64,000 nucleotides of DNA from an uncultured Lewinella sp. (GTDB taxonomy: Bacteria; Bacteroidota; Bacteroidia; Chitinophagales; Saprospiraceae): positions 4,904 to 68,903 of the forward strand of contig CAJXPD010000008.1 in the NCBI GenBank assembly GCA_913057785.1, read 5' to 3'. The position numbers and the translations under genes are program-made. Below are positions 44,494 to 62,791 of the stretch, piece by piece (within the stretch, counting starts at the first letter, position 1; each line of letters starts with the position of its first letter). The notes under the pieces were generated by a model, which searched no databases, was not told the DNA's origin, and was given only the letters and a program-made list of their open reading frames with translations.

Positions 44494-44684
44494 GGTTAGT
44501 GTTTTTAGGTTTTAATTGATGGTTCAAAGGTGCGCCAGATCCGGCTTCATCGAAACCTAAAAGAGTTGGATTGCTTTTTTTGTGGGTTGAAATGCTTGCG
44601 CGCTTTCCCGTTGGTCAAAAAGACCAACAGGGTCGTTTGTTTGGGAGTGAGATTATATGGTGGGAAATATGAGGTCAGGGATTC

Positions 44685-44705
44685 TGTTGGTGGAAAACAC
44701 CAACA
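44685..44705. repeat. REP-like hairpin TGTTGGTG-GAAAA-CACCAACA
   Basis: Perfect 8-bp palindrome. A variant, GTTGGTC-AAAAA-GACCAAC, lies at 44607-44632. Confidence 0.7.
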
Positions 44706-44737
44706 GGGGCTTGGGGTGATTTGGGCCGCCCGTTCTA

Positions 44738-44760
44738 ATGTTGGTGTTTTCCACCAACAT
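44738..44760. repeat. REP-like hairpin ATGTTGGTG-TTTTC-CACCAACAT (loop inverted relative to 44685)
   Basis: Perfect 9-bp palindrome. The tail CACCAACATTAAAGGCGAG is repeated as CACCAATATTAAAGGCGAG at 44793-44811. Confidence 0.7.
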
Positions 44761-44860
44761 TAAAGGCGAGATATCGGCTACCTTGGCGTATTCACCAATA
44801 TTAAAGGCGAGGCAGCGGTTACCTTTCCCTTCCAAATGCAATCAATGGAAAACAAAAATC

Positions 44861-45379: not shown

Positions 45380-45398
45380 TAGCTTCGATCCCAAGCCA

Positions 45399-45424
45399 AT
45401 GTTGATGTTTTCCGCCATCAACAT
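45399..45424. repeat. REP-like hairpin ATGTTGATG-TTTTCCGC-CATCAACAT
   Basis: Perfect 9-bp palindrome, 20 nt after the RAYT stop. Confidence 0.7.
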
Positions 45425-45503
45425 TACAAGGGAGAATAAGGAACAAGCGCCAAAATCAGCAACAACTTTTTACCTTGGCTGTTTACTCATAAATTAAAAG
45501 CGA

Positions 45504-46304
45504 ATGGAGCAATTCTTGAGCAACCCTTTCACCCAACCTTTATATTTCTTTCGACTAACAGCAATCATATTTGCGATTACCTTCATTAGGTATTTAGTCG
45601 TTTCGGGTGTTTATCATTACCTCTTTTTTGTCTGGTTACGGCCTACTTTTCAAAAACGAATCATCACCGTTCAGACGATCAGCAAGCGGCAGATGAGACA
45701 AGAGGTGTGGCGTTCTTTTTTGACCTCCTTCATTTTTGCATTTTCAGGGTCGGCACTAGTGATTTTTTGGCAAAAAGGATGGACGCAGATCTATATCGAT
45801 TGGAATGCTTATCCAATTTGGTATCTCCCTTTGAGTTTGTTGTTAGCCTTGCTGGTACATGAAACCTATTATTATTGGCTACATCGCTGGATGCATCTTC
45901 CCAAGGTCTATAAATGGGTGCACAAGTGGCACCACGATAGCATCGAGACTTCCTCATTGACCGCGTTTTCGTTTCACCCGATCGAATCCATCTTACAGGC
46001 CATTGTCGTACCGATCTTGATCCTATGTATTCCTCTGAATATTTACATCCTCTTCATACTACTCTTGATCATGACCTTATCTGGTACCATCAATCATGCT
46101 GGCGTAGAAATCTTCCCCAAAGGATTTGAACGACATTGGCTAGGAAAGTGGCTTATAGGAGCCAGTCATCATGATCTACACCATAAGCAGTTTCGGTACA
46201 ACTTTGGACTTTACTTTACCTTCTGGGATCATTGGATGAAAACGGAGAGCCCAAAGTACGAGCGGCACTTTAGGGCACATACTGGGAATGAGGTTAAAAA
46301 TTGA
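45504..46304 (+). CDS. fatty acid hydroxylase / sterol desaturase-family membrane di-iron enzyme
   Basis: 266 aa, TM helices plus the histidine boxes HETYYYWLHRWMH, HKWHH and HHDLHH. Confidence 0.8.
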   Translation: MEQFLSNPFTQPLYFFRLTAIIFAITFIRYLVVSGVYHYLFFVWLRPTFQKRIITVQTISKRQMRQEVWRSFLTSFIFAFSGSALVIFWQKGWTQIYIDWNAYPIWYLPLSLLLALLVHETYYYWLHRWMHLPKVYKWVHKWHHDSIETSSLTAFSFHPIESILQAIVVPILILCIPLNIYILFILLLIMTLSGTINHAGVEIFPKGFERHWLGKWLIGASHHDLHHKQFRYNFGLYFTFWDHWMKTESPKYERHFRAHTGNEVKN

Positions 46305-48015
46305 GCCCATAAGTTACCCCACCTGTAAATTCACTGAAGGCCTCCGTTAGACCATTTCCTACGGCATTTTGCTTACTGTCCACCCAACTCAGTTGAAGGG
46401 AGAGTTGGTGCTTTTCGAATAGCCGGTAGGAGGTATTGGACTGTAAGGTCAAAATGGTATTTGTATTCTCGCCATTACTCCAGACGCCAGACAAAGAAAC
46501 ATTGGCCGACAGGTTCATTTTATCCTCTAGCAGACTTTTGCTGATGTTGAAGCTTGGGGCAACGGTAAGCAATTGGATATTAGGTATAACGCCATAATTA
46601 CCCATTAAGGAAGCAGATAGACTCATTTTTTGAGCCGCAAGACTCTTATTGAAGGCTAGCACCCCCATGTAGTAAGTTGTAGTTTGATCCTTATTGATTA
46701 CATCATTTTCAATGGAATTGGATTGTTGATAGGAGAACATACCGGTTAAAACATTGGTCTTCTCCTTGCCCGCCAGATAGGTGACGGACAAGTTTGCGCT
46801 TTGATTAGTCTGCACTAGGATGATGGAGTCTACCTGGACTACGGGTACGGTGACTGCTCGCATTCGGTTAGTAGTACTGAAGTTGGAAATAGCTAGGTTT
46901 AAGTTTAGGCGTTCTGAAGCAGTATAAGCCGCGTTTAGCGCTCCGATGAATCGATTGGAGGAATTGGATCCATCTCCGGAAATATTATTTCGTTGTAGTC
47001 CAGCATTGGCGGAGAGATTGAGCTTTTTCTTAAAGAAGCTAGTTGAGGTACTCGCCGTGATATTTTCCAAATCATTGTTAAAAAATAAGGCGCCTAACGT
47101 TTTATAGCCAGGATCTATCCTTTCATGGTTGAGGTTGAATTGACCCAGCTTAGTATTTAAACCTAAACTCGTTTTGATAGCATGATGGAAGCCGGTAGAG
47201 GCATTGGGTTGGATTAATCCGCCAAACTTCTGCCATGTATTGTAGTTGGAAGTCGGCAGATCAAAGCTATTTTGATTTCGGGTTAGTGCACTTCTCGCAA
47301 AGTCTACAGATAGACTCATGATTTTCCAAAACTGGTGCTTTGCCTCCAAGCCTAGTACAGCATTGGCTGCTGGTTGGACGTTGAGATTTTGGGTAGGATT
47401 CGGAATGGAAAAAGGGTCATCTGCCGCATTGAACAGAATCAAGCCGATCTTACTTTTGCCATTGTCGTATCCTGTTTTGAATCCCCAGCCTTTCCTTGCG
47501 TAAGAGGGCTCAAAGTTTTGAATACTATTGGCATCTTCAGCTCGTGCGCGTTTCAGTTGCCCATACATAAAGCTAAACCGGAAGTTACCGGGCTTGAGTT
47601 CAAGCCCTGCTCCGTAGAAATTGTGGCCAGATAGGGTATAAGGGGAAAAATTCATACTTCGATCACCCAGATGCAAGGTAATGTATTTGTAAGTTGGACT
47701 GATGCCATAGAAACTATACTTAGGAAGATTGTACACAGAGCTGCCGTTTGAGAAGACCGCTGAGAAAGGGGCACTAATTCCTGCAATATCAAAGTTTAAG
47801 TTGGCATTTAATCGCCAGGTAAACGGATCGAATCGCCTAGGCATGCCCGTAATATGGTTGAAGTTGAAGGCTGTGGAAACACCGCCACTCATTTTAAACC
47901 ATTCTCCATTCTGACTTCGCTCTTTTAATCCCTTAAAGACATTATCCAGGTTCTGTCCTTGTGCTGAAATGAATAGTAAGGACAGTATGATGGTTAAGTA
48001 AAATCTGCTTTTCAT
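46294..48015 (-). CDS. outer-membrane beta-barrel protein, function unknown
   Basis: Signal peptide MKSRFYLTIILSLLFISAQG, alternating beta-strand pattern, C-terminal ..GGVTYGLNF. The track start 48021 is TTG; ATG is at 48015. Confidence 0.6.
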   Translation of the reverse strand: MKSRFYLTIILSLLFISAQGQNLDNVFKGLKERSQNGEWFKMSGGVSTAFNFNHITGMPRRFDPFTWRLNANLNFDIAGISAPFSAVFSNGSSVYNLPKYSFYGISPTYKYITLHLGDRSMNFSPYTLSGHNFYGAGLELKPGNFRFSFMYGQLKRARAEDANSIQNFEPSYARKGWGFKTGYDNGKSKIGLILFNAADDPFSIPNPTQNLNVQPAANAVLGLEAKHQFWKIMSLSVDFARSALTRNQNSFDLPTSNYNTWQKFGGLIQPNASTGFHHAIKTSLGLNTKLGQFNLNHERIDPGYKTLGALFFNNDLENITASTSTSFFKKKLNLSANAGLQRNNISGDGSNSSNRFIGALNAAYTASERLNLNLAISNFSTTNRMRAVTVPVVQVDSIILVQTNQSANLSVTYLAGKEKTNVLTGMFSYQQSNSIENDVINKDQTTTYYMGVLAFNKSLAAQKMSLSASLMGNYGVIPNIQLLTVAPSFNISKSLLEDKMNLSANVSLSGVWSNGENTNTILTLQSNTSYRLFEKHQLSLQLSWVDSKQNAVGNGLTEAFSEFTGGVTYGLNF

Positions 48016-48660
48016 ACTCAAAGGCTTTCAATAATGATGCCCTGGCTTTCCTGGTCAGGAGCCAATAAACTTACAGATGAAGACTTAGCTTCAGCAGCAG
48101 CGATTCCATTTATCCACGAGTGGATATCTAGAAATTAATGGGCAATAAATCAGGTACCTAGGTCTTCAGTTTTTCCATGCCATTAGATGCTTCCTATAGA
48201 ATCAATGCTTCGCTAGGCTAATAAATAGGGAATGCTGAAGAACCTGCAAAGAAGTCAATCCTGGATCACCTTTGTATACAGCTCATACCCGCTAAGGGGT
48301 AAAAGACAAGCTGCAGCCAGAGGTTGAAATGGCTTGACTCTAGTTGACTAAAAACTTGAGCAGATAATGGAAAATGGAATTTGTCCGAGTTGGACTTTGA
48401 TAATGGAAAGGAAATAAAATATGGATACAAATATAGGTGATCTCGAAAAGAGACGCAATCCCTATCGTACTTTTTGTATAGGTGTTATTTTCTCTATGTC
48501 CTTTAAGTGAATCTTTTTATGGGTAATTAAAGTGTTGAAAATCAATTATTTGTGAACGATTTGTTTAGTACTATATCTAGCGATAATTAATTTTTAATTG
48601 AATAAAGCTGTCACGATTGGTGTAGTTGGGAGATTATAAGAGTGGCTAAAGGAAAATAGC

Positions 48661-48674
48661 CAGATAATGGAAAG
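48661..48674 (+). repeat. CAGATAATGGAAAG motif copy
   Basis: Other plus-strand copies are at 48361-48373 and 48399-48410. Reverse-complement copies are at 62852-62863 and 62914-62927. Confidence 0.7.
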
Positions 48675-48682
48675 ATTTTGAA

Positions 48683-48726
48683 AAAGAGGTCGCGTCTAAT
48701 ATTGCGATGCGACCTCTTTCTTTTTC
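48683..48726 (+). terminator. orphan (possibly bidirectional) rho-independent terminator in an 893-nt intergenic region
   Basis: AAAGAGGTCGC (48683-48693) pairs perfectly with GCGACCTCTTT (48709-48719). A-run upstream, CTTTTTC downstream. Confidence 0.6.
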
Positions 48727-48914
48727 AACTACAGCTGTCAGGACATCGTCAATTCATAGTCTGTAACCCGAATTCATAAGATTACTGCAAATCAATAATC
48801 GCGATCAGCTAGGTCTGTTCGCATAGCTAAAACTATTGTCTTACACCAAGGGTAGGGGAGCGCGGATGAATAAGCTTATCTAGCCAACCCCTATCCCTTT
48901 TAACTACAACTCTA

Positions 48915-51900
48915 ATGAAGAGACTTTTATTAACCATGGCTCTCGGGCTAGGGTTGGGGCTTGTAGTAGGGTTTGCACAGCCTTATGCTGTCACTACTAA
49001 CATTCAGACTACTTCCTATAGTAAGTATCTGGACGATTATGCCCAACCCAACAGGGTGTTTGTGACCCTGTTGTCGACGGATTCAAGACCATCTTATCAA
49101 GCTTTTCTCCAAGTAGAAATAGCTGGCGATGGCTATAACTTGAAATCCAGACCCAACTTTATCCCTCCCCCCATTACCTTGTACAAGGACCAACCTATTA
49201 CACTTAGTGGCCTCTCCTTGGCGCCCTATTTAGATCCAAGCAATTTGGATTTTAATGGGATGTCCTTGGAGTCCTTTCTGTCTAGCGGAGGAAGGCTGCC
49301 GGATGGACCTATTACCATCTGTATCGAAGCCTATGACTTCAACCGAATAGGTTATCCACCGATTTCAAATAGGGCCTGTTCCTACGGGACCATTATGACC
49401 AATGCCCCACCGATAGTCACTGCTCCCATTGGCTATACACAAGCGGCCAATCCACAGAACTTTATGTTGAGTTGGCAGCCACAACATCTTGGTGCATTTC
49501 CGGTAGAGTACACAGTAGAGGTTTATCGAGATAATACAGGTTTTAGCCCTGATGTCACGGTTAACTCTACTGCTCCTGTTTTTACGACCAGGACGAATTT
49601 AACCACCTACAATTATTCTGCAATTGACCCGCTATTGATTAAGGGAGAGGATTATCTGATTCGGGTAAAAGCAGCTGATCTGTTGGGCGTTAATTACTTC
49701 GACAACGAGGGCTGGAGTGTCATTGAGTCTTTCCATTTTGGTGGAGAATGCCCTTCACCTGTAGCGGTCAGTTTTGGTGAAATCAGTGATACTTACCTCG
49801 AAGTTTTATGGCAGCTTGAAGAATCAGAAGGGGTGAATTACATTGAAGTGAGCATTGAAGATGAAAATGAAGAAATCATTAATCAAGCTCAACTATCAAG
49901 AGAAGATAGCCGATTTACATTTGAAGGACTAGAACCCGGAAGAGCTTACACGGTAACCGTTTGCACTGTTTGCGAAGGCGCAGGACAGACCTGTGTAGAT
50001 GTAGGTCCTATTTCAACGAAGGGAGAAGGAGAGTGCGAACCTCAGGTAATAGAATCCTTCAAGTTACAAGAATCCTTTCCTTTTTATGCCATCTTAGATT
50101 GGCCCCCAGTTTCTGGTGCGATGCAGTACGAAGTGCGTTACCGAGAAAGGGAAGGCGGAAGCTGGACTACATTTGCTGTAGCTGGCAACGAATCGCAAGT
50201 AAAAGTGGCGAATTTGATCCCTGGAACAACCTACGAGGCACAAATTCGAGTATTATGTTTTGAAGGAGAGCCCGGTCCTTGGTCTGAAACAGTTGTTTGG
50301 AATTCAGACTGTGCGGCACCAGATATTGTTTGGGTGGAAAGCTTCGATCATGAATCCGCGCTATTTGCTTGGTTTAGTTCGCCTTATGCCAAGAATTACC
50401 GTTTGCAGTATCGTCGCAAAGGAACCAATAGCTGGAGTAATGTCTATACTACGGAAAGTAGCAAGACGATTACCGGACTACAGGCCAGTACCACCTATGA
50501 ATATAGACTCAAGCTGAAATGTCTCGATAATAGCTGGTCTAGCTACTCGCCGATCTTTGAGTTTACTACCCTACAAGATTGTGATCCGATCAATGCTGAG
50601 GCTATACGATTCACCAATATTACGGCCTCTTCAGCAACGGTAACCGTACCGCATTCTGACCTCGTAGAATATTATTTGGTGAAGTATAAACCAGTAGGTG
50701 CTTCAAGCTATGAAGTCATACAATCAACGACCAGTGTGATTGAGCTCGAATTTCTAGAGCCCAATACTACCTATGAAGTGATCATTGCGAATGATTGTTA
50801 CGATAATTGGTCAGACTGGACTAGCCCACTCAATTTTACGACGCTTTGTGGCGCTTCAGACTTGGCTTGGGCAGAACAAATCACTGCCTTCACCGCAACT
50901 CTGTTGACCAACTCTATCAATGGTGCGGACCAATATCAATTTGAGTATAGACAGAAAGGAAGTAACGAATGGATTACCATGTCAGCCAGCACAGATTTGC
51001 ACGTTGACTTATCAGGCTTAGCAGATCTCACTACCTATGAAATTCGAGTACGATCTAAGTGTGGGGGTAGTTGGTCGGATCCTTCCGTTATTGCTGAATT
51101 CACAACGGGAGAAGATTGTTCAGCACCTTCTTCAATAACCGTATCCAATGAGGATCCTTCGGGCTTTGATTTAAGTTGGACCAACAACCCAAGAGTGGAC
51201 CGCTGGCAAGTGCACCTGAAAGCCCAAGACGGTTCTACTATATCCGGCTTAAAGATCCCCGGATTAGGCAATGAAATTCCTGGCGTAGATGGTGAAGGGT
51301 GGACCTTCTTTCACGTGCGGGAATCCGCTATCAACATCGATGGCTTAGCGGATAACACCACTTACGATATTCGGATCAGAGCTTTTTGCAGTGATGTGAT
51401 TCCATCGGATTTCAGTTCGACCTTTACCGGCACAACGCTGAGTAATTGCCAACCTCCAAACAACATCTGGTTCGACAATTTCAATGGCGAAAACATCACC
51501 ATCAATTGGACGCCAGAAACCTACAACAACCTTTGGGAAGTGGCCTACCGCCCAAAACCCAATGAAGGTGGCGACGGCCCCTGGACCAACCGAACCATCG
51601 AAGGTACCCCCAGCTTAACCCTAACCGGCCTACAACAAGGGCAGGACTATGAGTTCAAGATCAAGTCGAGCTGTAGCAACTTTGGCTGGACGGACTTCGG
51701 CCCAATTGGCAATTGGAATCATGGCCCCTGCGGCGCGCCTACCAATGTGACAGAGGATATCACCTCTTCTACTACCGTAAAATTGACTTGGACAGGCTCG
51801 GGTTTTGCTACCTATACGGTGCTCTATCGCCCTATGGGCGTCCCCGGCGCGCAGTACACCTCTGTCAACACCAACGCTACTAATATTGAACTCACCGGAT

Positions 51901-53084
51901 TACAGACTGGCACCATCTATGAGTACACGATTGCTGCCAATTGCTTCGGTGCTAACACTTCGTTTACATACGATGATGACTTCGAAATTGAGCGGGAATC
52001 TTTGGATAATGAGTTTTATGAGTGTGGGGTGGATACCGGGATTGTAGACCTAAGCAATCTTATGCCATTGTCGGATCTAATATCGGGAGATGAGGTAACT
52101 ATTGGAGATTTCAAGGTGATAATGAATGAGGTTCATGGATGGGGAGGTAATTTCAATGGTACGGGGTATATTCCTATCCCATATCTCAATATGGCACGGA
52201 TAAATGTGAAGTTTTCAGATATCATCGTCAACGATGAGTACATCGTAGTGGATGGAGAAATGGTGGTTACTGGCATTGGTGTGGCTCTTCTCGACGACAA
52301 AGCGGCTGCAATACTTGATGATATTCTAAATGTATTGAATACCGTGGATGATGTCTTGGAATTTGCAGAGGATATCATAACCTCAATTGAGGAAGCAACA
52401 GCCATGTTTGCCGAATATCTACCAGCGAATATCATTACGGATTTAGAAAATGCAAAACAAGCATTGGAGGCTGCAGTAACATCTGGAAACCCTTCAGATA
52501 TAACTGCGGCACAGGCTCAGTTGCAGACGGCTAGTGATAACTATAAGGCTGCACTTTCGCAGCTTATTCAGGATGCTTCAACGATCTTACAATTGGCTCT
52601 ACAGAAGTTGGAAACTGATTATCAGAATAATGTTACTACTCTGACCAATAATCTTAATACAAGTGAACAGGCTCTCCAGAACATCTTAGATGCACAGCAA
52701 ACTCAATTGTTTGGAACAACTTCGGTCCCCAGTATCCCTAATGAGGATATTAAGACGGACTTTATTGATATGGAGGAAGTTAAATGGAGTGACATGGATC
52801 CTACCGTTTTAAACCAAGCCTTCTATCAGAAATCTGAAGATTTTTTGGTCGATGGCAACCAATATCGACTTTGGCAAAAATTAGAAGAACTCAATACAGA
52901 ACTCCAGACTGATGATGATCTAACTAGTCTTATTGAACTGGTAAAGCTTGAGGATGTGGATATCATGAAACTTGTTGCTGATGGGGTGGCAAATGGAGAT
53001 ACCCATAATGTCATTTCCGATGCAGTTAAGCAAGAACTGATTGATAAAGTAAATATCATCTTGCTGAAAGCTTACGGTTATTAA
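48915..53084 (+). CDS. giant secreted protein: N-terminal domain, eight tandem Cys-bracketed Fn3-like modules, helical C-terminal region
   Basis: 1389 aa with signal peptide MKRLLLTMALGLGLGLVVGFAQP. About 90-aa repeats span aa 279-1036, each starting with C and carrying a W..Y..Y/EYR Fn3-like pattern. The C-terminal ~300 aa is coiled-coil-like (LENAKQALEAAV..). Confidence 0.8.
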   Translation: MKRLLLTMALGLGLGLVVGFAQPYAVTTNIQTTSYSKYLDDYAQPNRVFVTLLSTDSRPSYQAFLQVEIAGDGYNLKSRPNFIPPPITLYKDQPITLSGLSLAPYLDPSNLDFNGMSLESFLSSGGRLPDGPITICIEAYDFNRIGYPPISNRACSYGTIMTNAPPIVTAPIGYTQAANPQNFMLSWQPQHLGAFPVEYTVEVYRDNTGFSPDVTVNSTAPVFTTRTNLTTYNYSAIDPLLIKGEDYLIRVKAADLLGVNYFDNEGWSVIESFHFGGECPSPVAVSFGEISDTYLEVLWQLEESEGVNYIEVSIEDENEEIINQAQLSREDSRFTFEGLEPGRAYTVTVCTVCEGAGQTCVDVGPISTKGEGECEPQVIESFKLQESFPFYAILDWPPVSGAMQYEVRYREREGGSWTTFAVAGNESQVKVANLIPGTTYEAQIRVLCFEGEPGPWSETVVWNSDCAAPDIVWVESFDHESALFAWFSSPYAKNYRLQYRRKGTNSWSNVYTTESSKTITGLQASTTYEYRLKLKCLDNSWSSYSPIFEFTTLQDCDPINAEAIRFTNITASSATVTVPHSDLVEYYLVKYKPVGASSYEVIQSTTSVIELEFLEPNTTYEVIIANDCYDNWSDWTSPLNFTTLCGASDLAWAEQITAFTATLLTNSINGADQYQFEYRQKGSNEWITMSASTDLHVDLSGLADLTTYEIRVRSKCGGSWSDPSVIAEFTTGEDCSAPSSITVSNEDPSGFDLSWTNNPRVDRWQVHLKAQDGSTISGLKIPGLGNEIPGVDGEGWTFFHVRESAINIDGLADNTTYDIRIRAFCSDVIPSDFSSTFTGTTLSNCQPPNNIWFDNFNGENITINWTPETYNNLWEVAYRPKPNEGGDGPWTNRTIEGTPSLTLTGLQQGQDYEFKIKSSCSNFGWTDFGPIGNWNHGPCGAPTNVTEDITSSTTVKLTWTGSGFATYTVLYRPMGVPGAQYTSVNTNATNIELTGLQTGTIYEYTIAANCFGANTSFTYDDDFEIERESLDNEFYECGVDTGIVDLSNLMPLSDLISGDEVTIGDFKVIMNEVHGWGGNFNGTGYIPIPYLNMARINVKFSDIIVNDEYIVVDGEMVVTGIGVALLDDKAAAILDDILNVLNTVDDVLEFAEDIITSIEEATAMFAEYLPANIITDLENAKQALEAAVTSGNPSDITAAQAQLQTASDNYKAALSQLIQDASTILQLALQKLETDYQNNVTTLTNNLNTSEQALQNILDAQQTQLFGTTSVPSIPNEDIKTDFIDMEEVKWSDMDPTVLNQAFYQKSEDFLVDGNQYRLWQKLEELNTELQTDDDLTSLIELVKLEDVDIMKLVADGVANGDTHNVISDAVKQELIDKVNIILLKAYGY

Positions 53085-53102
53085 TCTTTCAAAAAACAAA
53101 CC

Positions 53103-56100
53103 ATGTATAAAATAAAAATAGGCTTACTGCTGCTAGTAGGCTTTCTCTCCCATGTCCTGAAAGCAGAGTCCAAGGAGCTAGATCTACTCGATATATTTCA
53201 AAATCAAGAAGAATTGATTGAGGAAGGGCAGAAGCAGTTCTTAGAACTACTGAAGTTTAATGCTGAGAATGAGCGTAGAGGTTGTCCTGAGGATAATATC
53301 TATGTTTTTAGTCTCGTCAGTTCAGACGACTGGTCGCAGTACGTTAAAGTGCCCAATACACCTGCCGAAGAGTATCTCGGTGATACAAAAGATGAGCTAA
53401 ACCAACGTCTTAAGGCCTTTAATACTAACCCCGATTTCAGCGATTTTGGAATGTATTTATGCTTGGTCACTGAATTATCCGCAAAAGTGTCATACGACTT
53501 TCCCCCAGGAAGCTTGGCTAATATCAAGGCTATGTATGAACGAAATGAGAAGGAGATACCTGGTTTTAGTAGCGCTGAATCTGCAGCGAGTATAGAAAAG
53601 CTAGAAGAACAGTGGGATAATATTATCAAGCAAGTTTTTGATGGTACTGAACAGCAACTGCAGAATGATTCAAATTTTGTCAGCTTCCAGCCGAAGCCTA
53701 ATCGAATGTACGTCACACAAACTTTGGTCAAGGCACAGCTTCAGGACCCCGAGGAGCAGGGTAGAGAAGTTAAGAAAGTAATTAATTCTGCTCGAATCCG
53801 CGGGTATTTTAAGCAACATTGGGACGAAATCTACAAGTATGAAAAGCGAATGCTCAAGACTAGAAGTGGAGAGCATTATAAGCTGGAGAATAGAATTTTA
53901 TCAGCCATTGAGTATGTAGAAGGAGGCATGGACTCTAATCCGGCTCCCAGTATGAACTTTAAGTTAGAGGGACAGACAAAAATTAAAGACGCTGCAAATC
54001 AAGCTGGTAACAATACTTACACTTCTTCAGATTTAGCGAATCAGAATCTATTCTTATTTGATTTTACTGGCATTTATGGTACTAATTCTCAAGTGGCGGT
54101 CGATGCTATAAATACCGTTTTGTCTGGCCAATTAGCCAAGAGTTCGACCAAACTAAAGGTTTTCATAACGGATTCAGCTGTTTCTCAGACTACTATCGAT
54201 ATGATCAAGAATATTAATATTCTTGATCCCGCCTATGAAAACTCTTTGATTCTCTGGTTGAATATCGACAACGATGCGGTAATAGAAACCTCTATTCGCG
54301 TCTCTCCTGACCTACAAAATGAAATTAATGCCCATTTAGATTGGGAACGATTCAATCAATTGTTGCAGGATGGCTCCTATGTCGATATGGCCTTGTTTAC
54401 AGCTAAACAAATCTTGGATATTAAGATTAAGGTCATCTATGGTATTTCAGAATTTGTACGCACAGTATTACAGGCAGGAATCATTCCTCCTAAGTACTAT
54501 GACATGACTGATATGAATCAGTATAATCCAATTCTGAAGGATATCATGACTTATGTGAATCCAGCGATGGCCTTTAGTGCAGTGGTAATGCAACCATTAT
54601 TGGATGAGTTTGGAGGTATGTACCCCGTCTTGCTAGGAGCTAATATCACGGACATCCAATTTGCCCTTTTTTGCGGTTTTTGGAATGGAATCTTGCTAGA
54701 GTTGGATGGCATTTTTGAAGTCATTTCCATGGTCGGGTACTTTGTGGATGAGAGAAAGAAGGCAGAAGTCGATCAAGTTATAGATGTATTTCAGAAGACC
54801 GACTTTCTGGACCTTGTTGAAAAGATGCTTAATGGTGCAATCACTGCACATACGGGACACCCTACTTTCGTGGCACATCAGATTGGGAAGGATATTATTA
54901 TGATCCTTACAATCGCAATTCCCGTTTCCAAGGTGGGGACCGTCGGAAAGCTAGCAAAGGTCACAAAGGTGATCAACGCTGTAGACAAACTGAATCCTCT
55001 TACACATGTTTTCGATGCCGCTGGCTTTATTTTAAAGAAGGGGACAGGGAAGGTAATTAAGGTCATGAAAGATGGTGTCAATGGAACCAAACTAGCCGAA
55101 TTGACCAAAGGCAGACTCAGGGTCTTTCAACAGCACCTGTACACTGGGGCACAGAGCTTTATCCAATTAACTGAAGCTATACCTGTTCCTCAAGTTGTTC
55201 TAGATACTGGTAATGGATTGATTGAAGCTGCCTCAATCGTTATGGTCAAGGTCAGTGATCCAGGAGGCACTTCTTCCTATTTCAGAAGGCTAGCAGACGA
55301 TGCAGGATTAGCAGCTACTAAGAATTTACTCAAAGGAAATTTTGATTTTGCTAAGCTATTTAAGAATGCTGAGGAGGCGGACTTGATAGCAGGGAAAATT
55401 GCGTCATTACCTTCTTCTAGCAAGCTCTATGATGTGGCCAATTTCTCTGGCCTAAAAGCTGCAATAGATGCTTTACCAGATGACTTGAAGAGAAAATTCT
55501 TCGAGGACTTGGCAGATATTGGAGAGAGTGCTGGAAATGCAGCAGGGAGTATATGGTTCGGAAGGCATCTAGATGATCTAGCTAGTAATCCAGATCTTGT
55601 AATTGCTTGGAAGGCTGCGAAAAAACAGGCCAGTTTAAGAACTAGTATTACCAGCTTAGAAAAAATTGATGTCGTTATCAAAAGTGGGAATATTCCCGTC
55701 AATAAACTTGAAGAAGCGCTAGATTCACATTTAGGAGATATTCTGGAAAATGCGAGCGATCTAAATAGAACTAGTATCCTCAATCGTCTGAACCTCCCAC
55801 ATGTTGACGGTAGTCATTTTCAGGAGATGGTTAATAGACTTCAGAAGTGGGATAAACTTACCGAAGACCTAATAAATCACCCTGAATGGTTCGACACTTT
55901 TGATGATATCCTGAATGAACCAGGAAAGTACTGGGATATCGTGGATGAAGCAGAACTTCCTAATAGTGCTGAATTATTAGCCTGGGGGCAAGGGCATTGG
56001 TGGAAGAACTTGCGGAAATTAGCCCAAGATTTTGAATCTGGAGCAGCTCTAACTAAATTTACCGGGAGTAGCCCCGATTTGAATCTCAATCTTACAGGTT

Positions 56101-56465
56101 TCGTTGAGCAAGTGACTCTAGAGGTTAATGGGATAAAGATTCGAGTCGATTTTATTGGTAAAGATGCCGCTGGTAAATTCCATTTGGGAGATGCAAAATT
56201 CTCTACCAAGAGCAAAGATTGGGTTGCAGATTGGCTAGATGCTTCAACAGATAATCAAAAACTGGTATACCCTTTGTTCGAACCTCCTGGAGGAGTGAAC
56301 AGCATTGTAGTAAAGGCTTCAGATCCCGATAAGTTAACTCAATTGCAGCAAATTCTAGGCCTAAGTAACAATAGTCCAATAGCATTTTCAAATACCAGTT
56401 TCCGAATTCTAGGTAGTGAAGCCAATCAACAGGCTGTAAAAACCGTAGTTACCTTAAAGAACTAG
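53103..56465 (+). CDS. large secreted protein with a C-terminal PD-(D/E)xK nuclease-like module (polymorphic-toxin-like)
   Basis: 1120 aa with signal peptide MYKIKIGLLLLVGFLSHVLKA and hydrophobic helices mid-protein. The C-terminal ..FVEQVTLEVNGIKIRVDFIGKDAAGKFHLGDAKFSTK.. gives E..D1016..D1030-A-K1032. Confidence 0.75.
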   Translation: MYKIKIGLLLLVGFLSHVLKAESKELDLLDIFQNQEELIEEGQKQFLELLKFNAENERRGCPEDNIYVFSLVSSDDWSQYVKVPNTPAEEYLGDTKDELNQRLKAFNTNPDFSDFGMYLCLVTELSAKVSYDFPPGSLANIKAMYERNEKEIPGFSSAESAASIEKLEEQWDNIIKQVFDGTEQQLQNDSNFVSFQPKPNRMYVTQTLVKAQLQDPEEQGREVKKVINSARIRGYFKQHWDEIYKYEKRMLKTRSGEHYKLENRILSAIEYVEGGMDSNPAPSMNFKLEGQTKIKDAANQAGNNTYTSSDLANQNLFLFDFTGIYGTNSQVAVDAINTVLSGQLAKSSTKLKVFITDSAVSQTTIDMIKNINILDPAYENSLILWLNIDNDAVIETSIRVSPDLQNEINAHLDWERFNQLLQDGSYVDMALFTAKQILDIKIKVIYGISEFVRTVLQAGIIPPKYYDMTDMNQYNPILKDIMTYVNPAMAFSAVVMQPLLDEFGGMYPVLLGANITDIQFALFCGFWNGILLELDGIFEVISMVGYFVDERKKAEVDQVIDVFQKTDFLDLVEKMLNGAITAHTGHPTFVAHQIGKDIIMILTIAIPVSKVGTVGKLAKVTKVINAVDKLNPLTHVFDAAGFILKKGTGKVIKVMKDGVNGTKLAELTKGRLRVFQQHLYTGAQSFIQLTEAIPVPQVVLDTGNGLIEAASIVMVKVSDPGGTSSYFRRLADDAGLAATKNLLKGNFDFAKLFKNAEEADLIAGKIASLPSSSKLYDVANFSGLKAAIDALPDDLKRKFFEDLADIGESAGNAAGSIWFGRHLDDLASNPDLVIAWKAAKKQASLRTSITSLEKIDVVIKSGNIPVNKLEEALDSHLGDILENASDLNRTSILNRLNLPHVDGSHFQEMVNRLQKWDKLTEDLINHPEWFDTFDDILNEPGKYWDIVDEAELPNSAELLAWGQGHWWKNLRKLAQDFESGAALTKFTGSSPDLNLNLTGFVEQVTLEVNGIKIRVDFIGKDAAGKFHLGDAKFSTKSKDWVADWLDASTDNQKLVYPLFEPPGGVNSIVVKASDPDKLTQLQQILGLSNNSPIAFSNTSFRILGSEANQQAVKTVVTLKN

Positions 56466-56479
56466 AAATAGATTTTGGT

Positions 56480-57181
56480 ATGAATAAGAATGAAGTCAAG
56501 AAATTACGAGAAAAAGTACTATTGAGTTTGGAATCCAGGTTTCATGAATACGGATTTACTCTAAAAGTAAAACCAGCAACTTTCGAGAATTCGGAAGCAT
56601 TCATTCACTGGGGACCAACTCGAACTTTTCCAGATGCTTTGATTTTTCGACCTTGGATTAGAATAGAAAACAAGGAAATAAAAAAGATCCTTAAAACTCT
56701 ATTCCCTTCTGAATTCGCTTTCAATACTATCGTTAGAACCCAGGGAAGCTCCTTCGCTCATGAGATGAACGTTTGGGATATGGATAATTCCCCATTCAAT
56801 TTTCAGGATGAAAATGGTAGTTCCTATTATTATCGCATAGAACATGATACGGATCTAGATGTAATCTGCGAAGATCATTTTCGCTTTATGAGTTTAGTTG
56901 GTTTTCCCTTCATAGATAAGCTCAACAGCTTAGATGGAGTAAATGCCTATATCAATAATCGAGTTTTGGCAAAGGAAATCGGTTCTTTTCAACGAGAAGA
57001 AGATCTACTCCAAGTTAGAAAGTTCTTCGATAAGCGAGAGGTATTAAGTGGGGCTATTGCAGCTCATTTGTTGGAGAAGGATAATCTAGAGGAATTACTT
57101 AGACGATATCGTATTCTGTTTGAAGGCAATTCCTATATCTTGACGGATCTGGATAAAGTTATCCAGCACTTTTCTAATTAG
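56480..57181 (+). CDS. cytoplasmic 233-aa protein, candidate immunity protein
   Basis: Starts 14 nt after the upstream stop, with no signal peptide. The N-terminus (..KKLREKVLLSLESRFHEYGFTLKVKPATFEN..) resembles small immunity-protein architectures. Confidence 0.45.
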   Translation: MNKNEVKKLREKVLLSLESRFHEYGFTLKVKPATFENSEAFIHWGPTRTFPDALIFRPWIRIENKEIKKILKTLFPSEFAFNTIVRTQGSSFAHEMNVWDMDNSPFNFQDENGSSYYYRIEHDTDLDVICEDHFRFMSLVGFPFIDKLNSLDGVNAYINNRVLAKEIGSFQREEDLLQVRKFFDKREVLSGAIAAHLLEKDNLEELLRRYRILFEGNSYILTDLDKVIQHFSN

Positions 57182-57318
57182 TGATTGAGTAGAAAATTTT
57201 TGACTTCATTTGACTCTTTAGTTCTCTTTTCCCCTTTTGGTAAGAGAAAATAAACCGAAAGCCAGCGATACGCAAAAGCTTGGTTTTCAATATCACTGGA
57301 TGATCTAAAGTTTAAACC

Positions 57319-60300
57319 ATGTTCAAAAAATATATACTATTTCTCCTCTTGGGGAGCTGGGCGAGCTTTGCCTATGCCAGCCCTCCAACCAGTGAGGATC
57401 GCGATGGCAAGCGAAAAGAAATGCCCACATTACCTCGCCTAGCTATGGATGAGGTGGAGTCTTTAACGACTAAAAAATTGGAGGTGGCAGCAACGCCACC
57501 TCCGGCTTCCGCCGCTGCTCCGCAGTCTGGCTATCATTTTGAGTCCATTGATGCACAGTTGCAGCATATCATCGAGACTAAGACTTTGATGTTGCCCTTT
57601 GATGAAGCACCACAGGCTGCTGTTTTAAACGATGATATGGCGGATATCTTTGTCAATATTGGCACCGGAGATTACAGTGCTAAGGTGAAAAGGGCTAGAG
57701 AAGCGATCAACAAAGCCATTGATATTGGAAACTTTATCAGTCAGTTGACGGGGGAAGACCTGGTGGATTTGCCATTGGTGTTGCAGCAGACTATAAGTAA
57801 TGTTACCTATAGCTTAACCATCAATAAAATGACTTTGAAGCCGACCCATACGGAGTTAGAGATTTTTCTTGGAATCGATATTCCTAATCAGAACTTCTCA
57901 CTCTACTTTGGCTCCCCTAACATTAAGTTTTCGTATGATGGTGGATTTGAATTACCAGCAACTTTAGCCTTGTATTCAGCAGTAGCCATTCCGATCAAGG
58001 ATAAAAAATCGGCTTTGGTCTTACAGCCCTATCATGAGGATCCAACTACAGGTTTACCCTTGGGTACTTATGTGACTATAGACTGTGATGGGTTTAAGGA
58101 GATGGCTGTGGAGGCAGATCTAATCTTCTCCCGCGATTGGATCGTACCGGTTGATAACAATGGCGATGTATTACCTACGGGTCGAGTAACGGGGAGCTTC
58201 CAAACCATCCTAACCGATTGGAATGACCTACTAATAGACAATCTTACGCTACCCAATTTTGCCTTGAAGTCCTTTGATGATATTGCATTCAACATCACAA
58301 ATGCTGTATTTGACTTTAGTGATTTCCGCAATGGGCAAAATGTGAATTTTCCTCCTTTGTATGCCCAGCAGAATCTTTTGCCAGGTAATGCTAGCTTATG
58401 GAGAGGTGTTTACTTTGAGAATGTCGAGATTGTATTGCCCAAGCAGTTTACCTTGAAGAATTGCAATGCCAGCAATAATTGCCGGGTTAAATTGGGCGCT
58501 AATGATTTATTGATTGATCCGAATGGAGTGAGCGCAGAATTCTATGCCCAGAATATCTTTGGGATCAATGATGGAGAGATGGACAAGTGGCGATGGTCTT
58601 TGGATGAAATCAGTATCAACGTAGTAGCTAGTGACGTGACGGGCTTCGGTTTCGAGGGAGAGATTGGGGTGCCGATTGCCAAGGAGACAACGCCCTTTGG
58701 CTATACGGCCTACTTTGACTTTGGAATGCAGGAGTATAACTTTTCTATCCTGAATCCTTCCAACATGGAGTTCCCGCTATGGCAGGCTGGGCAGGTGACC
58801 ATCGCCGCAGGTTCCAAACTGGAAATCACGGCGACACCTACAAAGTTTGAGCCAGTAGCGATATTGAATGGTAGTGTGGATATCAATGCCAAGTTTGATT
58901 TGGCGGATAATGAAGAGATGGTTGAGTTGGTAGGCTTGCAGTTTCAGAAGTTGAAACTACAGACACAAGCGCCTTACATCGGTTTGGATACCGGTGGGTC
59001 CATGAGCTTGAGCTCTGGCTTGAATGTGGCTAACTTCCCTGTATCTATTGCCAATCCATCCATTCATGGTACGGCCGGGGGAGGTGTCGAATTGCGGCTA
59101 GGTGTAAACATAAATTTGATGTCTCAAACAAATGGTGGGTTTGCAGCAACTACCGATGTGAGTCTGTTTGGAGATATGGACCCCAGTCAAGCCTTACATC
59201 TTTGGAAGTATAGCTCGATGCAAATTAATAGTGCTAGTATATCCATCTCTTTACCTAAGCTGGAGTTGGATGGCCAGATTGATATCTTCCGAAACGATCC
59301 CGATTATGGCAATGGTTTTCATGGCACTTTGAGCGTAGATGTATTAGATGGAAAATTTGAGATGGATGCCGAAACTTACTTCGGTAATGTGAATAATTAT
59401 CGGTATTGGTACTTTGATGTGAAAGTGCAATCCAACGCTTTGAGTATCCCCCTATATCCTCCGGTAGTAATCAATGGATTTGGTGGAGGTGCCTATCACC
59501 ATATGAAGATGTCCAGCTTTACGGCTAATCCAGACCCGGATAAGACGGGCGTGAAGTATGTACCTTCTCAATCAGTAGCGCTGGGATTAAAGGCTTCGGT
59601 ATTGCTCTCCTCGGTAGAAGGTACGCTTGATGGAGAGGCTACGCTGGAAATGGTCTTCGGTTCGGGAATGTCTCTACAGGATATTGTCTTTTATGGCAAG
59701 GCAGAGCTAGCCACGGATAACATTGGTCAGGGACTCTTGGACAATCGGATTTCCAAGTTTTTAATGAATCAACAGCAGACCAGAGCACAAGACGATGCTG
59801 AATCACAAAACCCATTAGGCAAGATTAGCGCTGCGCTCTTTATGCGCATGAATTTCACCGCTGGCTTTGAACTGCAAGGTACCTTCAATACTTACCTAAA
59901 TGCGGGTAATGGAATTATTGTGGGTAGTGGTTCGGCTGATCTCTTGCTATCGACACCGCAAAATAAATGGCACTTATACATCGGCGGATACTCTGACGGG
60001 TCTATTACCGTACAACAATTGAGCAATACGGTTACGCTTTATCCCGTATCAGTCTCCATTCAATACGAGAATGATCCAAACGATCCGAGTGACGATATTC
60101 AAGTTAGTGCAAGTGCCTACTTCTTAACGGGGAATGATATACCGGGGCCTCCACCTTTGGATCCGCAGGCAGCAGCGGTCTTTGGAGTCAATAATAGTAA
60201 TCGAGGTGGGCTCGGAGGTACCCCAGCCCTCGGCACAGGCTTTGCCTTTGGTGCTGCGGCCAATTTCAACTTTACCTATACCAAGACACCAAATAAGCGA

Positions 60301-60621
60301 TATGTGAATCTCTCGGGAGGAGTCGGCTTCGATATTTCACTATTGAAATATGCCAATGGCACTACCTGCTCTTTGAGTAATACCAGCCCACATGGCTTGA
60401 AGCATTGGAGAGCCAATGGTAACCTTTGGACTTTCATGAATGCAAGTGGAAAATGGAAGGTAATCGCTACCATTCCTTTTAATGTGAGTTTAGGGGTATT
60501 GCTACAGGCAGATGTACCAAAGCCATCCTACTTCAACGGTCAAGTTGCCCTACAACTCCCATTTGGAATCAATGTACCATTTGGTGTAAGTGTCGGTCAA
60601 CAATGTGGTACCGTATACTAA
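57319..60621 (+). CDS. large secreted protein of unknown function (no domain recognised)
   Basis: 1100 aa with signal peptide MFKKYILFLLLGSWASFAYA. Gly/Asn/Ser-rich composition, which I read as beta-rich. C-terminal ..GVSVGQQCGTVY. Confidence 0.75.
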   Translation: MFKKYILFLLLGSWASFAYASPPTSEDRDGKRKEMPTLPRLAMDEVESLTTKKLEVAATPPPASAAAPQSGYHFESIDAQLQHIIETKTLMLPFDEAPQAAVLNDDMADIFVNIGTGDYSAKVKRAREAINKAIDIGNFISQLTGEDLVDLPLVLQQTISNVTYSLTINKMTLKPTHTELEIFLGIDIPNQNFSLYFGSPNIKFSYDGGFELPATLALYSAVAIPIKDKKSALVLQPYHEDPTTGLPLGTYVTIDCDGFKEMAVEADLIFSRDWIVPVDNNGDVLPTGRVTGSFQTILTDWNDLLIDNLTLPNFALKSFDDIAFNITNAVFDFSDFRNGQNVNFPPLYAQQNLLPGNASLWRGVYFENVEIVLPKQFTLKNCNASNNCRVKLGANDLLIDPNGVSAEFYAQNIFGINDGEMDKWRWSLDEISINVVASDVTGFGFEGEIGVPIAKETTPFGYTAYFDFGMQEYNFSILNPSNMEFPLWQAGQVTIAAGSKLEITATPTKFEPVAILNGSVDINAKFDLADNEEMVELVGLQFQKLKLQTQAPYIGLDTGGSMSLSSGLNVANFPVSIANPSIHGTAGGGVELRLGVNINLMSQTNGGFAATTDVSLFGDMDPSQALHLWKYSSMQINSASISISLPKLELDGQIDIFRNDPDYGNGFHGTLSVDVLDGKFEMDAETYFGNVNNYRYWYFDVKVQSNALSIPLYPPVVINGFGGGAYHHMKMSSFTANPDPDKTGVKYVPSQSVALGLKASVLLSSVEGTLDGEATLEMVFGSGMSLQDIVFYGKAELATDNIGQGLLDNRISKFLMNQQQTRAQDDAESQNPLGKISAALFMRMNFTAGFELQGTFNTYLNAGNGIIVGSGSADLLLSTPQNKWHLYIGGYSDGSITVQQLSNTVTLYPVSVSIQYENDPNDPSDDIQVSASAYFLTGNDIPGPPPLDPQAAAVFGVNNSNRGGLGGTPALGTGFAFGAAANFNFTYTKTPNKRYVNLSGGVGFDISLLKYANGTTCSLSNTSPHGLKHWRANGNLWTFMNASGKWKVIATIPFNVSLGVLLQADVPKPSYFNGQVALQLPFGINVPFGVSVGQQCGTVY

Positions 60622-60638
60622 AGCACCTGTAATTGTGG

Positions 60639-60669
60639 TTTTCCGTTGCTCAAATTGGGCAGCGGAAAA
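60639..60669 (+). other. stem-loop in the spacer before the last operon gene
   Basis: TTTTCCGTTGC (60639-60649) pairs with GCAGCGGAAAA (60659-60669): 11 bp with one G-T. No T-tract. Confidence 0.4.
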
Positions 60670-60724
60670 TCTACCGAACACAAAGAAAATCAACCCTTAT
60701 TTTGACAATCGTAATTTTCTTATC

Positions 60725-62791
60725 ATGAGAAATTTATTTGTATTCCTTTTCGTGCTATGCTTCACCTATGGGCATGCTAACAATGAAGCTAAACCAGATT
60801 CCAATCTACTACAGACCTATTATAAAATTGAGGATGGCCAACTCCTGCTTCGTTGGAATCCTGCCAATCCCTACCTTTGGCTGGAAGGCCGAAAGAATGG
60901 GTATTTAATCGAAAAATATAGATATCCGGCAGATGGAGGTAGGCCCGTGTTGGTCTCCACAAGCACTGAGACGATCCTTCCCTGGCCCGCAAATAATTGG
61001 CTATCTGAAACTTCCACGGAAACTCGCCGAAATGCACATATTCTGTTTCATTATGACCAGATGCATCCAGATTCTATCGAACAGGATCTTCCCATAGCTG
61101 AATATGGCGAGGCAGGCCGATTGAATGTTTTTCATAGACTGTCCAACTATATCATGAACGCTGATTTTGGTGCAGTAGAGTTGGCTGGCTTAGGGATCAG
61201 AGATGGAGAACTTGAGCCAAATGCCAAGTATTTATATGTAGTGAAACTAGCCTCAAACCCTAATGAGATTAACGCTAGCGTAAAAGTGGATATGAGTAGC
61301 TATCAAGCACCAATTACGCCAAAGCTGCAGGCCGAATTTCTATCTAGCCGTGTGGAATTGCAATGGCGTACCTACGAGTTTCGCGACTTCTACTATGGCT
61401 ACTTTTTAGAACGATCGGAAGATGGGGTGAATTTTGAGCTGGTCAATGAAACGCCTTTCGTTAACGTTTATGACACAACAACTCAGGAGGCGCTGAAGTC
61501 CTTTTACTATACCGATAGCTTGGCACAAAATGACAAAACCTATTGGTATCGACTTAGAGGTGCGGATTACCTCGGAGGAGTAAGTGAGAAGTACACGGAA
61601 GTCAGTGGCATGGGTTACGAAGAGATACCGCATAGCCCCATGATTCGAGAAGCTATCCAGACGGATAGCAACTACGCTATTATCAAATGGAAATTTCCGG
61701 AGGCTTTTGAAGCTAGAGTAAAAGAATTTCAGATTTTTCATTCTGATTCCTTGGATGGTATATTTTCTCCGGTCGTAGAAGGGATCAACCCTACCGAAAG
61801 AGAAGTTGCGGTGAGAATGCGCTACAATACGAATGCCTATCGGGTGGTCTTGGTGCCCTACGGTGGACCGAAGAAAGCATCCTTCCCTGCCCTGGTAATG
61901 GCTTGGGATGAAGAACCTCCAGCCATGCCGATTGGTTTTACAGGAACGATTGATAGCCTAGGTATTGTACGTTTAGCCTGGGATCCCAATACTGAGGAAG
62001 ACCTCGATGGCTATAAGGTATATAAGTCTTATTTCAAAGAAGAAGAATTTTCTGGTATTACCAGTAAACCTATTCAAGTCACCAATTTCGTGGACACAGT
62101 AGATATGGTTGTCGGTAACGAATGGGTGTATTATACGATCCAGGCAGTAGATGAGCGAAATAATCGATCTGATTTCACGCAAATATTGGAATTGAAGAAA
62201 AAGGATATGTATCCTCCAGTAGAACCCCATATTCACAAGGTGGATAAATCTACTGGACAGATTGAGATCCATTGGTACAATAGCAGTAGTCCAGATGTAG
62301 AAAGCCATCGCTTGTTTAGAAAAGTTTTGGGTGAGGAGGAAAGCTGGACAATGATCAAGGAATACGGATTGGAGGATAATGTGGAATCCTACGTGGATAC
62401 AAATGTAGTTCGCAAAAAAGTATATGCTTATACATTGGTGGCTATCGATGATGATGGATTGGAATCGGAGCCAGCACAAGCAGCTACCGCAAAGGTTATG
62501 GATTATGGCCTTCGAGATGCTATTGAGGTGACTGAAGTCAATCTGATGGAAGATCAAAAGCAAGTAGAAATCAAGTGGAATTATCCCTTGAATGCCAGTG
62601 AATTTTGGGTGTATAAAGGATCTGATAAGGAGCGAACTAGTTTGATGAAGGTGGTATCTGCTGAAGAAATGGAGTTAATTGACCAGAACTTGCAAAAGGG
62701 CCGAACCTATCATTATTATTTGAAGGCCTTTTTCGAGGACGGATCTTTCTCCCCCTTTACCGAAAAGATAGAGGTGCAACTAGACGATTAG
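60725..62791 (+). CDS. secreted multi-Fn3-like repeat protein
   Basis: 688 aa from ATG 60725 (MRNLFVFLFVLCFTYGHA signal peptide; track start 60590 rejected). About six ~100-aa repeats with a W-x..Y-x-[VIL]-[YF]..Y.Y Fn3-like pattern (LRWNP.., LQWRT.., IKWKF.., LAWDP.., IHWYN.., IKWNY..). Confidence 0.8.
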   Translation: MRNLFVFLFVLCFTYGHANNEAKPDSNLLQTYYKIEDGQLLLRWNPANPYLWLEGRKNGYLIEKYRYPADGGRPVLVSTSTETILPWPANNWLSETSTETRRNAHILFHYDQMHPDSIEQDLPIAEYGEAGRLNVFHRLSNYIMNADFGAVELAGLGIRDGELEPNAKYLYVVKLASNPNEINASVKVDMSSYQAPITPKLQAEFLSSRVELQWRTYEFRDFYYGYFLERSEDGVNFELVNETPFVNVYDTTTQEALKSFYYTDSLAQNDKTYWYRLRGADYLGGVSEKYTEVSGMGYEEIPHSPMIREAIQTDSNYAIIKWKFPEAFEARVKEFQIFHSDSLDGIFSPVVEGINPTEREVAVRMRYNTNAYRVVLVPYGGPKKASFPALVMAWDEEPPAMPIGFTGTIDSLGIVRLAWDPNTEEDLDGYKVYKSYFKEEEFSGITSKPIQVTNFVDTVDMVVGNEWVYYTIQAVDERNNRSDFTQILELKKKDMYPPVEPHIHKVDKSTGQIEIHWYNSSSPDVESHRLFRKVLGEEESWTMIKEYGLEDNVESYVDTNVVRKKVYAYTLVAIDDDGLESEPAQAATAKVMDYGLRDAIEVTEVNLMEDQKQVEIKWNYPLNASEFWVYKGSDKERTSLMKVVSAEEMELIDQNLQKGRTYHYYLKAFFEDGSFSPFTEKIEVQLDD

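Follow-up and report, generated by a model that had tools for sequence, protein, structure and literature searches.

A 64,000-nucleotide (nt) stretch of contig CAJXPD010000008.1 from an uncultured Lewinella sp. (hereafter the window) carries on its forward strand the open reading frame (ORF) 53103-56465, which encodes a protein of 1120 amino acids (aa). Throughout, nt positions are those of the window and aa positions are residues of the 1120-aa protein. An earlier note on this DNA had described the same ORF, which is borne out here, as a secreted protein that ends in a nuclease module of the kind found in polymorphic toxins. Our analysis indicates that the last ~290 aa of the protein and the next gene probably constitute an exchangeable toxin-immunity cassette of a Saprospiraceae polymorphic toxin system, in which the putative nuclease would most likely degrade DNA.

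The protein starts with a conserved carrier region (aa 1-830, nt 53103..55592, + strand), in which a signal peptide (aa 1-~21) precedes a conserved core of moderate hydrophobicity (aa ~440-670). The carrier is followed by a helical adaptor or pre-toxin domain (aa ~825-950, nt 55575..55952, +) and a toxin core with a predicted PD-(D/E)xK nuclease fold (aa 951-1120, nt 55953..56462, +), the minimal shared part of which spans aa ~975-1120. The next gene (nt 56480..57181, +), starting 14 bp past the toxin stop codon, encodes a 233-aa protein without signal peptide, the candidate cognate immunity protein. In agreement with the earlier description of the 1120-aa protein as secreted, its N-terminus (MYKIKIGLLLLVGFLSHVLKA/ES) is signal-peptide-like, with a Kyte-Doolittle mean of 1.63 over 19 aa. 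Two hydrophobic stretches (aa 520-538 and 588-606) are present as described, with only moderate hydrophobicity (Kyte-Doolittle about 1.43). However, they do not form the pre-toxin segment that had been suggested. They lie inside the conserved carrier, ~230-310 aa upstream of the swap junction; the actual pre-toxin segment is the helical adaptor of aa ~825-950. The carrier segment of aa 440-670 shows weak similarity to other toxin carriers (L015_1130, L002_863, L014_1248, P0023 and P0027), and aa 1-830 have no match in Pfam, NCBIfam or PDB. Scans of the whole protein against Pfam, NCBIfam and PHROGs gave no significant or informative family, and phmmer and profile searches of the PDB sequences with the whole protein and the carrier alignment found nothing significant.

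A homologue search of 5.8 billion proteins turned up no more than three that are related to the full protein, namely P0002 (91% identity), P0003 (51%) and P0004 (47%), all of similar length and all matching only the first ~76% of the query. Alignment of these four alleles, including the present one, showed that aa 1 to ~830 are conserved and that the last ~270-290 aa are unalignable. Moreover, comparison of the toxin core family with the C-termini of P0002, P0003 and P0004 by hhalign detected no relationship. The related loci share a syntenic order of a 1387-1389-aa Fn3 protein, the carrier, a small variable gene and a ~1100-aa protein. The small variable gene encodes 233 aa here, 356 aa with a PQQ_2 beta-propeller in locus L001, 118 aa in L010 and 359 aa beside P0004, and the downstream genes of the four alleles are mutually unrelated, so that the gene differs per allele and co-varies with the toxin. 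A ‘YRG’ motif hinted that the P0003 allele carries an ADP-ribosyltransferase, but Pfam does not support this, and the assignment was rejected.

The same exchange is seen at the DNA level. By blastn, two segments of the window, nt 45089-55592 and nt 57315-60621, align with L001, from a Saprospiraceae metagenome-assembled genome of a close relative, at an identity of about 83%, and the DNA between them does not align. As the DNA alignment breaks between 55592 and 57315, the exchanged cassette is nt 55593..57314 (+), which contains the adaptor and toxin core (aa ~831-1120), the 233-aa gene and intergenic DNA, and to which the L001 sequence is unrelated. The GC content of the cassette is 38.0%, compared to 41-45% in the flanks. 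The module is thus larger than the ~160 aa, from aa 960, assigned to it earlier, its real boundary being aa ~831 (nt 55593). Nevertheless, its description as the variable C-terminal module of a polymorphic toxin fits well, since orthologues keep aa 1-830 and exchange unrelated C-termini together with the downstream genes. Compared with the L010 allele, the carrier (nt 53469-55592) shows about 51% protein identity and patchy DNA identity of 66%, whereas the flanking genes share 84-88% DNA identity; this faster divergence points to diversifying selection on the carrier itself, or to older recombination within it.

Full-length homologues of the 281-aa C-terminus are short proteins of 305-370 aa, most of which possess their own signal peptide, and an exhaustive profile search found 79 proteins for the C-terminal module. 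Domain-wise searches with hidden Markov models (HMMs) showed that the adaptor and the core are two independent parts. The adaptor (HMM match 8.5e-57) is all-helical in the predicted structure, with a predicted local distance difference test score (pLDDT) above 90, and starts with a conserved junction motif, LVxAW(E/K)..K..LRT. It occurs alone ahead of other, unrelated C-termini in P0019, P0020, P0031, P0062, P0063 and P0069. The core alone is located at the C-terminus of the PT-HINT proteins P0058, P0059 and P0065 and of carriers without annotation (P0023, P0026, P0027 and P0038), and both parts together end the 3090-aa SprB/Ig protein P0036 of Haliscomenobacter hydrossis. The core is therefore common to different carriers, including PT-HINT, SprB/Ig and stand-alone proteins, and orphan cassettes exist as well. 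In Saprospiraceae GCA_023957545 (L002 1-9800 and L003 1-9163), adaptor-led orphan cassettes form an array after a large toxin; besides a homologue of the present toxin/immunity pair, the array holds other C-termini, a PT-HINT gene and a PoNi immunity gene. In the 64-kb window, scanning all six frames with the HMMs detected no additional adaptor, toxin or immunity cassette. Among the homologues, P0010, a Logan contig sequence that matches aa ~714-960, differs systematically (A>V, S>F, P>L/F, T>I and H>Y); these differences are C-to-T conversions in the DNA, as from a bisulfite-treated or deaminated library, and no real variation.

The short stand-alone homologues with signal peptides, several of which are followed by an inhibitor-like gene, together with the lack of a recognisable delivery domain on the 1120-aa protein, would also suit a secreted nuclease for nutrient scavenging or turnover of extracellular DNA, whose producer is kept safe by an inhibitor in the manner of barnase/barstar or NucA/NuiA. 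We regard such a non-weapon role as very unlikely. A scavenging enzyme does not account for orthologous carriers in which unrelated C-termini, each with an unrelated downstream gene, replace the domain, for the position of the domain after PT-HINT pre-toxin domains, or for orphan cassette arrays in which it accompanies a PoNi immunity gene. Altogether, C-terminus swapping, PT-HINT fusion and orphan arrays, all three of them hallmarks of conflict systems, argue for a conflict system rather than a housekeeping nuclease.

The 233-aa gene at nt 56480-57181 is likely the cognate immunity gene, because a homologue follows the toxin core in six non-redundant locus types. In L003, L005, L008, L014 and L017, the homologues are 38-41% identical and are separated by 2-21 bp from the same core upstream of them. 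P0036, whose core is divergent, has a divergent immunity homologue after its core (E 5.6e-10, from a small search). In other alleles of the present carrier, the 233-aa gene is replaced by other genes. The family comprises 18 homologues, all unnamed or annotated as ‘hypothetical’. It has no Pfam domain and no informative match in NCBIfam or PHROGs, matches no Imm family (Imm49 included) and has no PQQ match, and a profile search of the PDB sequences with the family alignment yielded nothing significant. In L015/L016, an orphan immunity homologue (5989-6648) has no toxin core upstream; it is preceded by a carrier-like protein of 1130 aa and a 365-aa gene.

The key residues of the toxin core are E978 (codon at nt 56034-56036), D1016 (56148-56150), D1030 (56190-56192), K1032 (56196-56198) and Q1052 (56256-56258). 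The residue positions given earlier are correct, with FVEQV starting at aa 1000 and the codons of D1016, D1030 and K1032 starting at nt 56148, 56190 and 56196, respectively. Across an alignment of 43 homologous domains, with identities as low as about 25%, D1016, K1032 and Q1052 are 100% conserved, followed by T1049 (98%) and N1051 (88%). In the motif ‘FE’, F977 is conserved at 79% and E978 in most domains. Every alignment row read has D or E at position 1030, and position 1056 is Y, F or L, whereas E1002 is variable (E/T/D/K/R/A). The core domain contains no cysteine.

An AlphaFold2 model of aa 951-1120 (170 aa), based on an alignment of 30 sequences, has a pLDDT of 93.5 and a predicted template modelling (TM) score of 0.86, and adopts an alpha-beta-beta-beta-alpha-beta core. 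The helix of residues 956-987 carries E978, and the three following strands, beta1 (997-1008), beta2 (1011-1021) and beta3 (1026-1032), carry E1002, D1016 and D1030-A-K1032, respectively. A helix of residues 1050-1059 carries Q1052 and is followed by a strand of residues 1068-1070 and further beta-alpha-beta-beta elements. The model hence has the arrangement of a canonical PD-(D/E)xK fold, with an acidic residue in helix alpha1, an aspartate on beta2 and the (D/E)xK on beta3. The assignment of D1016 and D1030-A-K1032 to a PD-(D/E)xK motif therefore stands, with D1016 and K1032 invariant and placed on beta2 and beta3. In contrast, the glutamate that had been taken as the helix acid (E1002 of FVEQV) is found in strand beta1 and is not conserved; the helix acid is instead E978, which aligns with E259 of Card1.

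Structural similarity search of the model against PDB using Foldseek returned almost exclusively PD-(D/E)xK nucleases, including Exo5, SduA, Card1 and the nuclease domains of AdnAB/AddAB, in addition to the Cas4-family proteins ACE1 and SSO0001, NucS, MunI, EcoO109I, XisH and cap-snatching endonucleases, with E values from 2.9e-3 to about 0.5 and TM-scores of 0.25-0.37. Against BFVD, a set of viral models, the matches were RecE/ExoVIII, Cas4 and ‘PD-(D/E)XK’ proteins, with E values from 5.5e-4 and probabilities near 1. An earlier 281-aa model from a shallow alignment (pLDDT 75), since replaced by the 170-aa model, gave nothing significant with Foldseek. At the sequence level, Card1 ranked first when the family profile was compared with the PDB sequences (E 0.037). 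The profile alignment matches F977-E978 with F258-E259 of Card1, D1016 with D294 and D1030-x-K1032 with E308-x-K310; the Card1(D294N) entry of PDB has its mutation at this D294. Individual members of the core family also have weak Pfam matches to PDDEXK_11, HSDR_N_2, Hjc and DUF234.

These data bear on whether the motif might have arisen by chance, or whether the domain might lack catalytic activity and serve as a structural or adhesive module. Taken alone, the pattern D-x(10-20)-[DE]-x-K is in fact not above chance, with 7 matches in the protein against 8.5 ± 3.4 in shuffles, and no curated family matches the domain. Nevertheless, we consider this explanation extremely improbable, given the invariance of D1016, K1032 and Q1052 in 43 divergent domains, the confident model of the right topology, the consistent recovery of PD-(D/E)xK nucleases as structural neighbours and the alignment of the Card1 catalytic residues. 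The present copy of the motif is accordingly taken as real because of its conservation and structure, not because of the bare pattern. Likewise, we accept the predicted PD-(D/E)xK nuclease fold of the C-terminal domain because three independent lines agree, though no single score is strong.

Several points weigh against a nuclease toxin that is delivered to other cells and cuts DNA. The Foldseek E values are modest (2.9e-3 at best in PDB and 5.5e-4 in BFVD) and the TM-scores low (0.25-0.42), and the sequence match to Card1 is marginal. In Pfam, NCBIfam and PHROGs, neither the C-terminus nor 30 members of its family have a significant match to the sequence model of any known toxin or nuclease family. 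Beyond the signal peptide, no secretion or trafficking domain was recognised on the toxin protein by Pfam and NCBIfam, and the Pfam scan found no type IX secretion system (T9SS) C-terminal sorting domain (Por_Secre_tail). Finally, some PD-(D/E)xK toxins are RNases, so a DNA substrate is not assured.

The last point deserves weighing on its own, as the same polymorphic toxin with the same fold could target RNA, for instance tRNA, as do Burkholderia CdiA-CT tRNases of PD-(D/E)xK fold. The fold by itself does not determine the substrate, tRNases are known among the CdiA-CT toxins that share it, and cap-snatching RNA endonucleases are among the Foldseek matches. However, the best structural neighbours (Exo5, RecE, Cas4, AddAB/AdnAB, SduA and Card1) are DNA nucleases. 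Moreover, BaCT, the experimentally tested Bacteroidetes toxin of the superfamily, is a DNase (Jana, Salomon & Bosis 2020, PMC7073777), and DNA targets are expected for the Tox-REase clades (Zhang et al. 2012, PMC3482391). An RNA target thus appears unlikely, and DNA remains the more probable substrate.

Among described systems, the TANFOR/BaCT class comes closest. The polymorphic toxins of this class, from Bacteroidetes, include BaCT, a PD-(D/E)xK DNase with the immunity protein BaCTic; TANFOR neighbourhoods are enriched in SprB, Fn3 and T9SS C-terminal-domain genes, and in some cases it is the next gene downstream of the TANFOR gene that encodes the toxin (PMC7073777). The present locus shares with this class the phylum, a Sec signal peptide, a C-terminal PD-(D/E)xK toxin module of ~300 aa and an immunity gene directly downstream, as well as a neighbourhood rich in Fn3, SprB and Por_Secre_tail proteins. 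It also resembles the class in gene order, since the toxin gene lies downstream of an Fn3 gene whose product has a TANFOR-like N-terminus. The sister alleles P0002 and P0004 look BaCT-like, with the ExK located 118 and 119 aa from the C-terminus, compared to 115 aa in BaCT, and with downstream genes of 356 aa (PQQ-like) and 359 aa that resemble BaCTic.

Despite these similarities, the toxin protein itself carries no TANFOR domain. The catalytic lysine of its core lies 88 aa from the end, the core has no hhalign similarity to the BaCT-like alleles (probability below 1%), and P0036, a member of this core family, is absent from the published BaCT list although the H. hydrossis genome was analysed there (PMC7073777). 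Compared to BaCTic (about 300-390 aa, often PQQ-like), the immunity protein is shorter (233 aa), unrelated and without a PQQ match. The core therefore appears distinct from BaCT.

With Tox-REase-1 to -10 the core shares a restriction-endonuclease fold at the C-terminus of polymorphic toxins and the fusion to PT-HINT (Zhang et al. 2012, PMC3482391). The signature ‘E, D, ExK, Q(, Y)’ of Tox-REase-1/-6 is compatible with E978, D1016, D1030-x-K1032, Q1052 and Y1056, a comparison by signature only. None of 30 family members matches the Pfam models of Tox-REase-2, -3, -5, -7 and -9 at E ≤ 1. The immunity proteins of Tox-REase-1/-6 are Imm49 or Imm-PA2201 (PMC3482391); the present immunity protein matches no Imm family of Pfam, Imm49 included.

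Card1, Exo5, Cas4 and RecB-type nucleases are the best structural and sequence-profile neighbours of the core. They share the helix acid, the aspartate, the (D/E)xK and a glutamine in the following helix, and Q1052-x3-Y1056 resembles their QxxxY motif. However, the similarity is at the level of the fold only (TM 0.25-0.42), and the core differs in having no iron-sulphur (Fe-S) cysteine cluster, no CARF or helicase partner and a toxin context. The Cas4/RecB clade is defined by QxxxY and a four-cysteine Fe-S cluster; here Q1052 is invariant, position 1056 is Y, F or L, and cysteines are absent. Because it lacks cysteine, the domain is not a Cas4-type Fe-S nuclease. PoNe/PoNi (PMC6688995) represents another PD-(D/E)xK DNase toxin family found across several delivery systems, and a PoNi immunity gene is present in the orphan-cassette array that holds a homologue of this toxin (L003); yet the core has no PoNe Pfam match and its immunity family differs. 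Rehh (2026 preprint) was rejected as a relative, being an unrelated HNH-type nuclease.

Directly upstream of the toxin gene, nt 48915..53084 (+) encode a secreted 1389-aa protein with a TANFOR-like N-terminal region, about nine Fn3 domains (Pfam fn3, 9 stretches, E 7.6e-57) and a helical C-terminal region. Over its N-terminal ~285 aa, it shares 32% identity with the P0062 N-terminus (E 2e-26; hhalign 99.4%). In turn, aa 23-155 of P0062 match the TANFOR model TIGR02542 over its full length below threshold (E 2.2e-4, 21 bits against a cut-off of 67 bits), and P0062 also carries the same adaptor. The upstream protein itself has no direct TIGR02542 match, and the TANFOR domain is absent from the 1120-aa protein. 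Wherever a related locus includes upstream sequence, the Fn3 gene is present in synteny, and its product is a probable partner or delivery component. In a metagenome contig with an identical toxin gene (L012 5868-9982), the Fn3 gene is split into ORFs of 792 and 589 aa, either by a frameshift or by an assembly error. Further upstream, an ORF at nt 44738-45379 contains an IS200/IS605-type Y1 transposase domain (PF01797, detected in L011); L001 lacks this stretch, leaving a gap at 44668-45088 in the DNA alignment.

Downstream of the cassette, nt 57319..60621 (+) encode a conserved secreted protein of 1100 aa, 94% identical to its L001 homologue and without a family match in Pfam or NCBIfam or a match in PDB. 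A relative with 30% identity (L005 4709-6745) lies near a stand-alone toxin/immunity pair, and the 1100-aa protein is a possible component of the system. It is followed by a second conserved secreted protein, of ~718-733 aa (nt 60590-62791); the listed GTG start at 60590 overlaps the preceding gene, and the gene calls of L011 begin 45 nt later, at window position 60635. Judging from the identical locus L011, the region from ~63153 to the window end at 64000 presumably opens the gene of a giant protein with SprB repeats and a T9SS Por_Secre_tail, which extends past the window. The homology of the upstream Fn3 N-terminus to P0062, with its sub-threshold TANFOR match and the same adaptor, together with the SprB/Por_Secre_tail gene downstream, makes the locus look like a divergent, split TANFOR-type system.

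From these results, we suggest the following mechanism. The carrier (aa 1-830) would be exported over the inner membrane via its Sec signal peptide, and the adaptor (aa ~825-950), common to many other toxins, would mark the recombination junction. The segment of aa ~951-1120 would act as a metal-dependent PD-(D/E)xK nuclease, in which E978, D1016 and D1030 may bind the metal, K1032 may serve as the catalytic lysine, and Q1052 may support the active site or the substrate. In the producer, the cytoplasmic 233-aa product of nt 56480-57181 presumably binds and blocks the nuclease. Delivery into a competing cell might follow a T9SS-linked route, as proposed for TANFOR-class toxins, after which the nuclease would most likely degrade DNA. 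We know of no established exit route of TANFOR-type toxins from the cell.

The system is a known kind of bacterial weapon, of which the core, adaptor, carrier and immunity protein all are without a Pfam or NCBIfam model. Tentatively, and with somewhat more doubt than confidence, the locus may be read as an undescribed, split relative of TANFOR systems, in which a TANFOR-like Fn3 protein, a separate carrier of ~830 aa with a semi-hydrophobic core and a secreted 1100-aa partner deliver interchangeable toxins. In the same joint reading, the ‘LVxAW(E/K)’ adaptor would be a general pre-toxin or recombination handle of TANFOR-like, PT-HINT and SprB-type carriers, and the core and the 233-aa protein would represent new families of restriction-endonuclease-fold toxins and immunity proteins, distinct from BaCT/BaCTic and from Tox-REase-1 to -10. 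Interbacterial weapons are poorly charted in Bacteroidota outside the gut, and the locus offers a compact, testable Saprospiraceae toxin-immunity pair with a clearly delimited swap junction at nt 55592/55593. The shared adaptor domain could be used for mining further toxins, and the conserved gene set of Fn3 protein, carrier and 1100-aa protein may point to the delivery machinery. The putative nuclease and its candidate immunity protein would add uncurated families to the repertoire of PD-(D/E)xK toxins.

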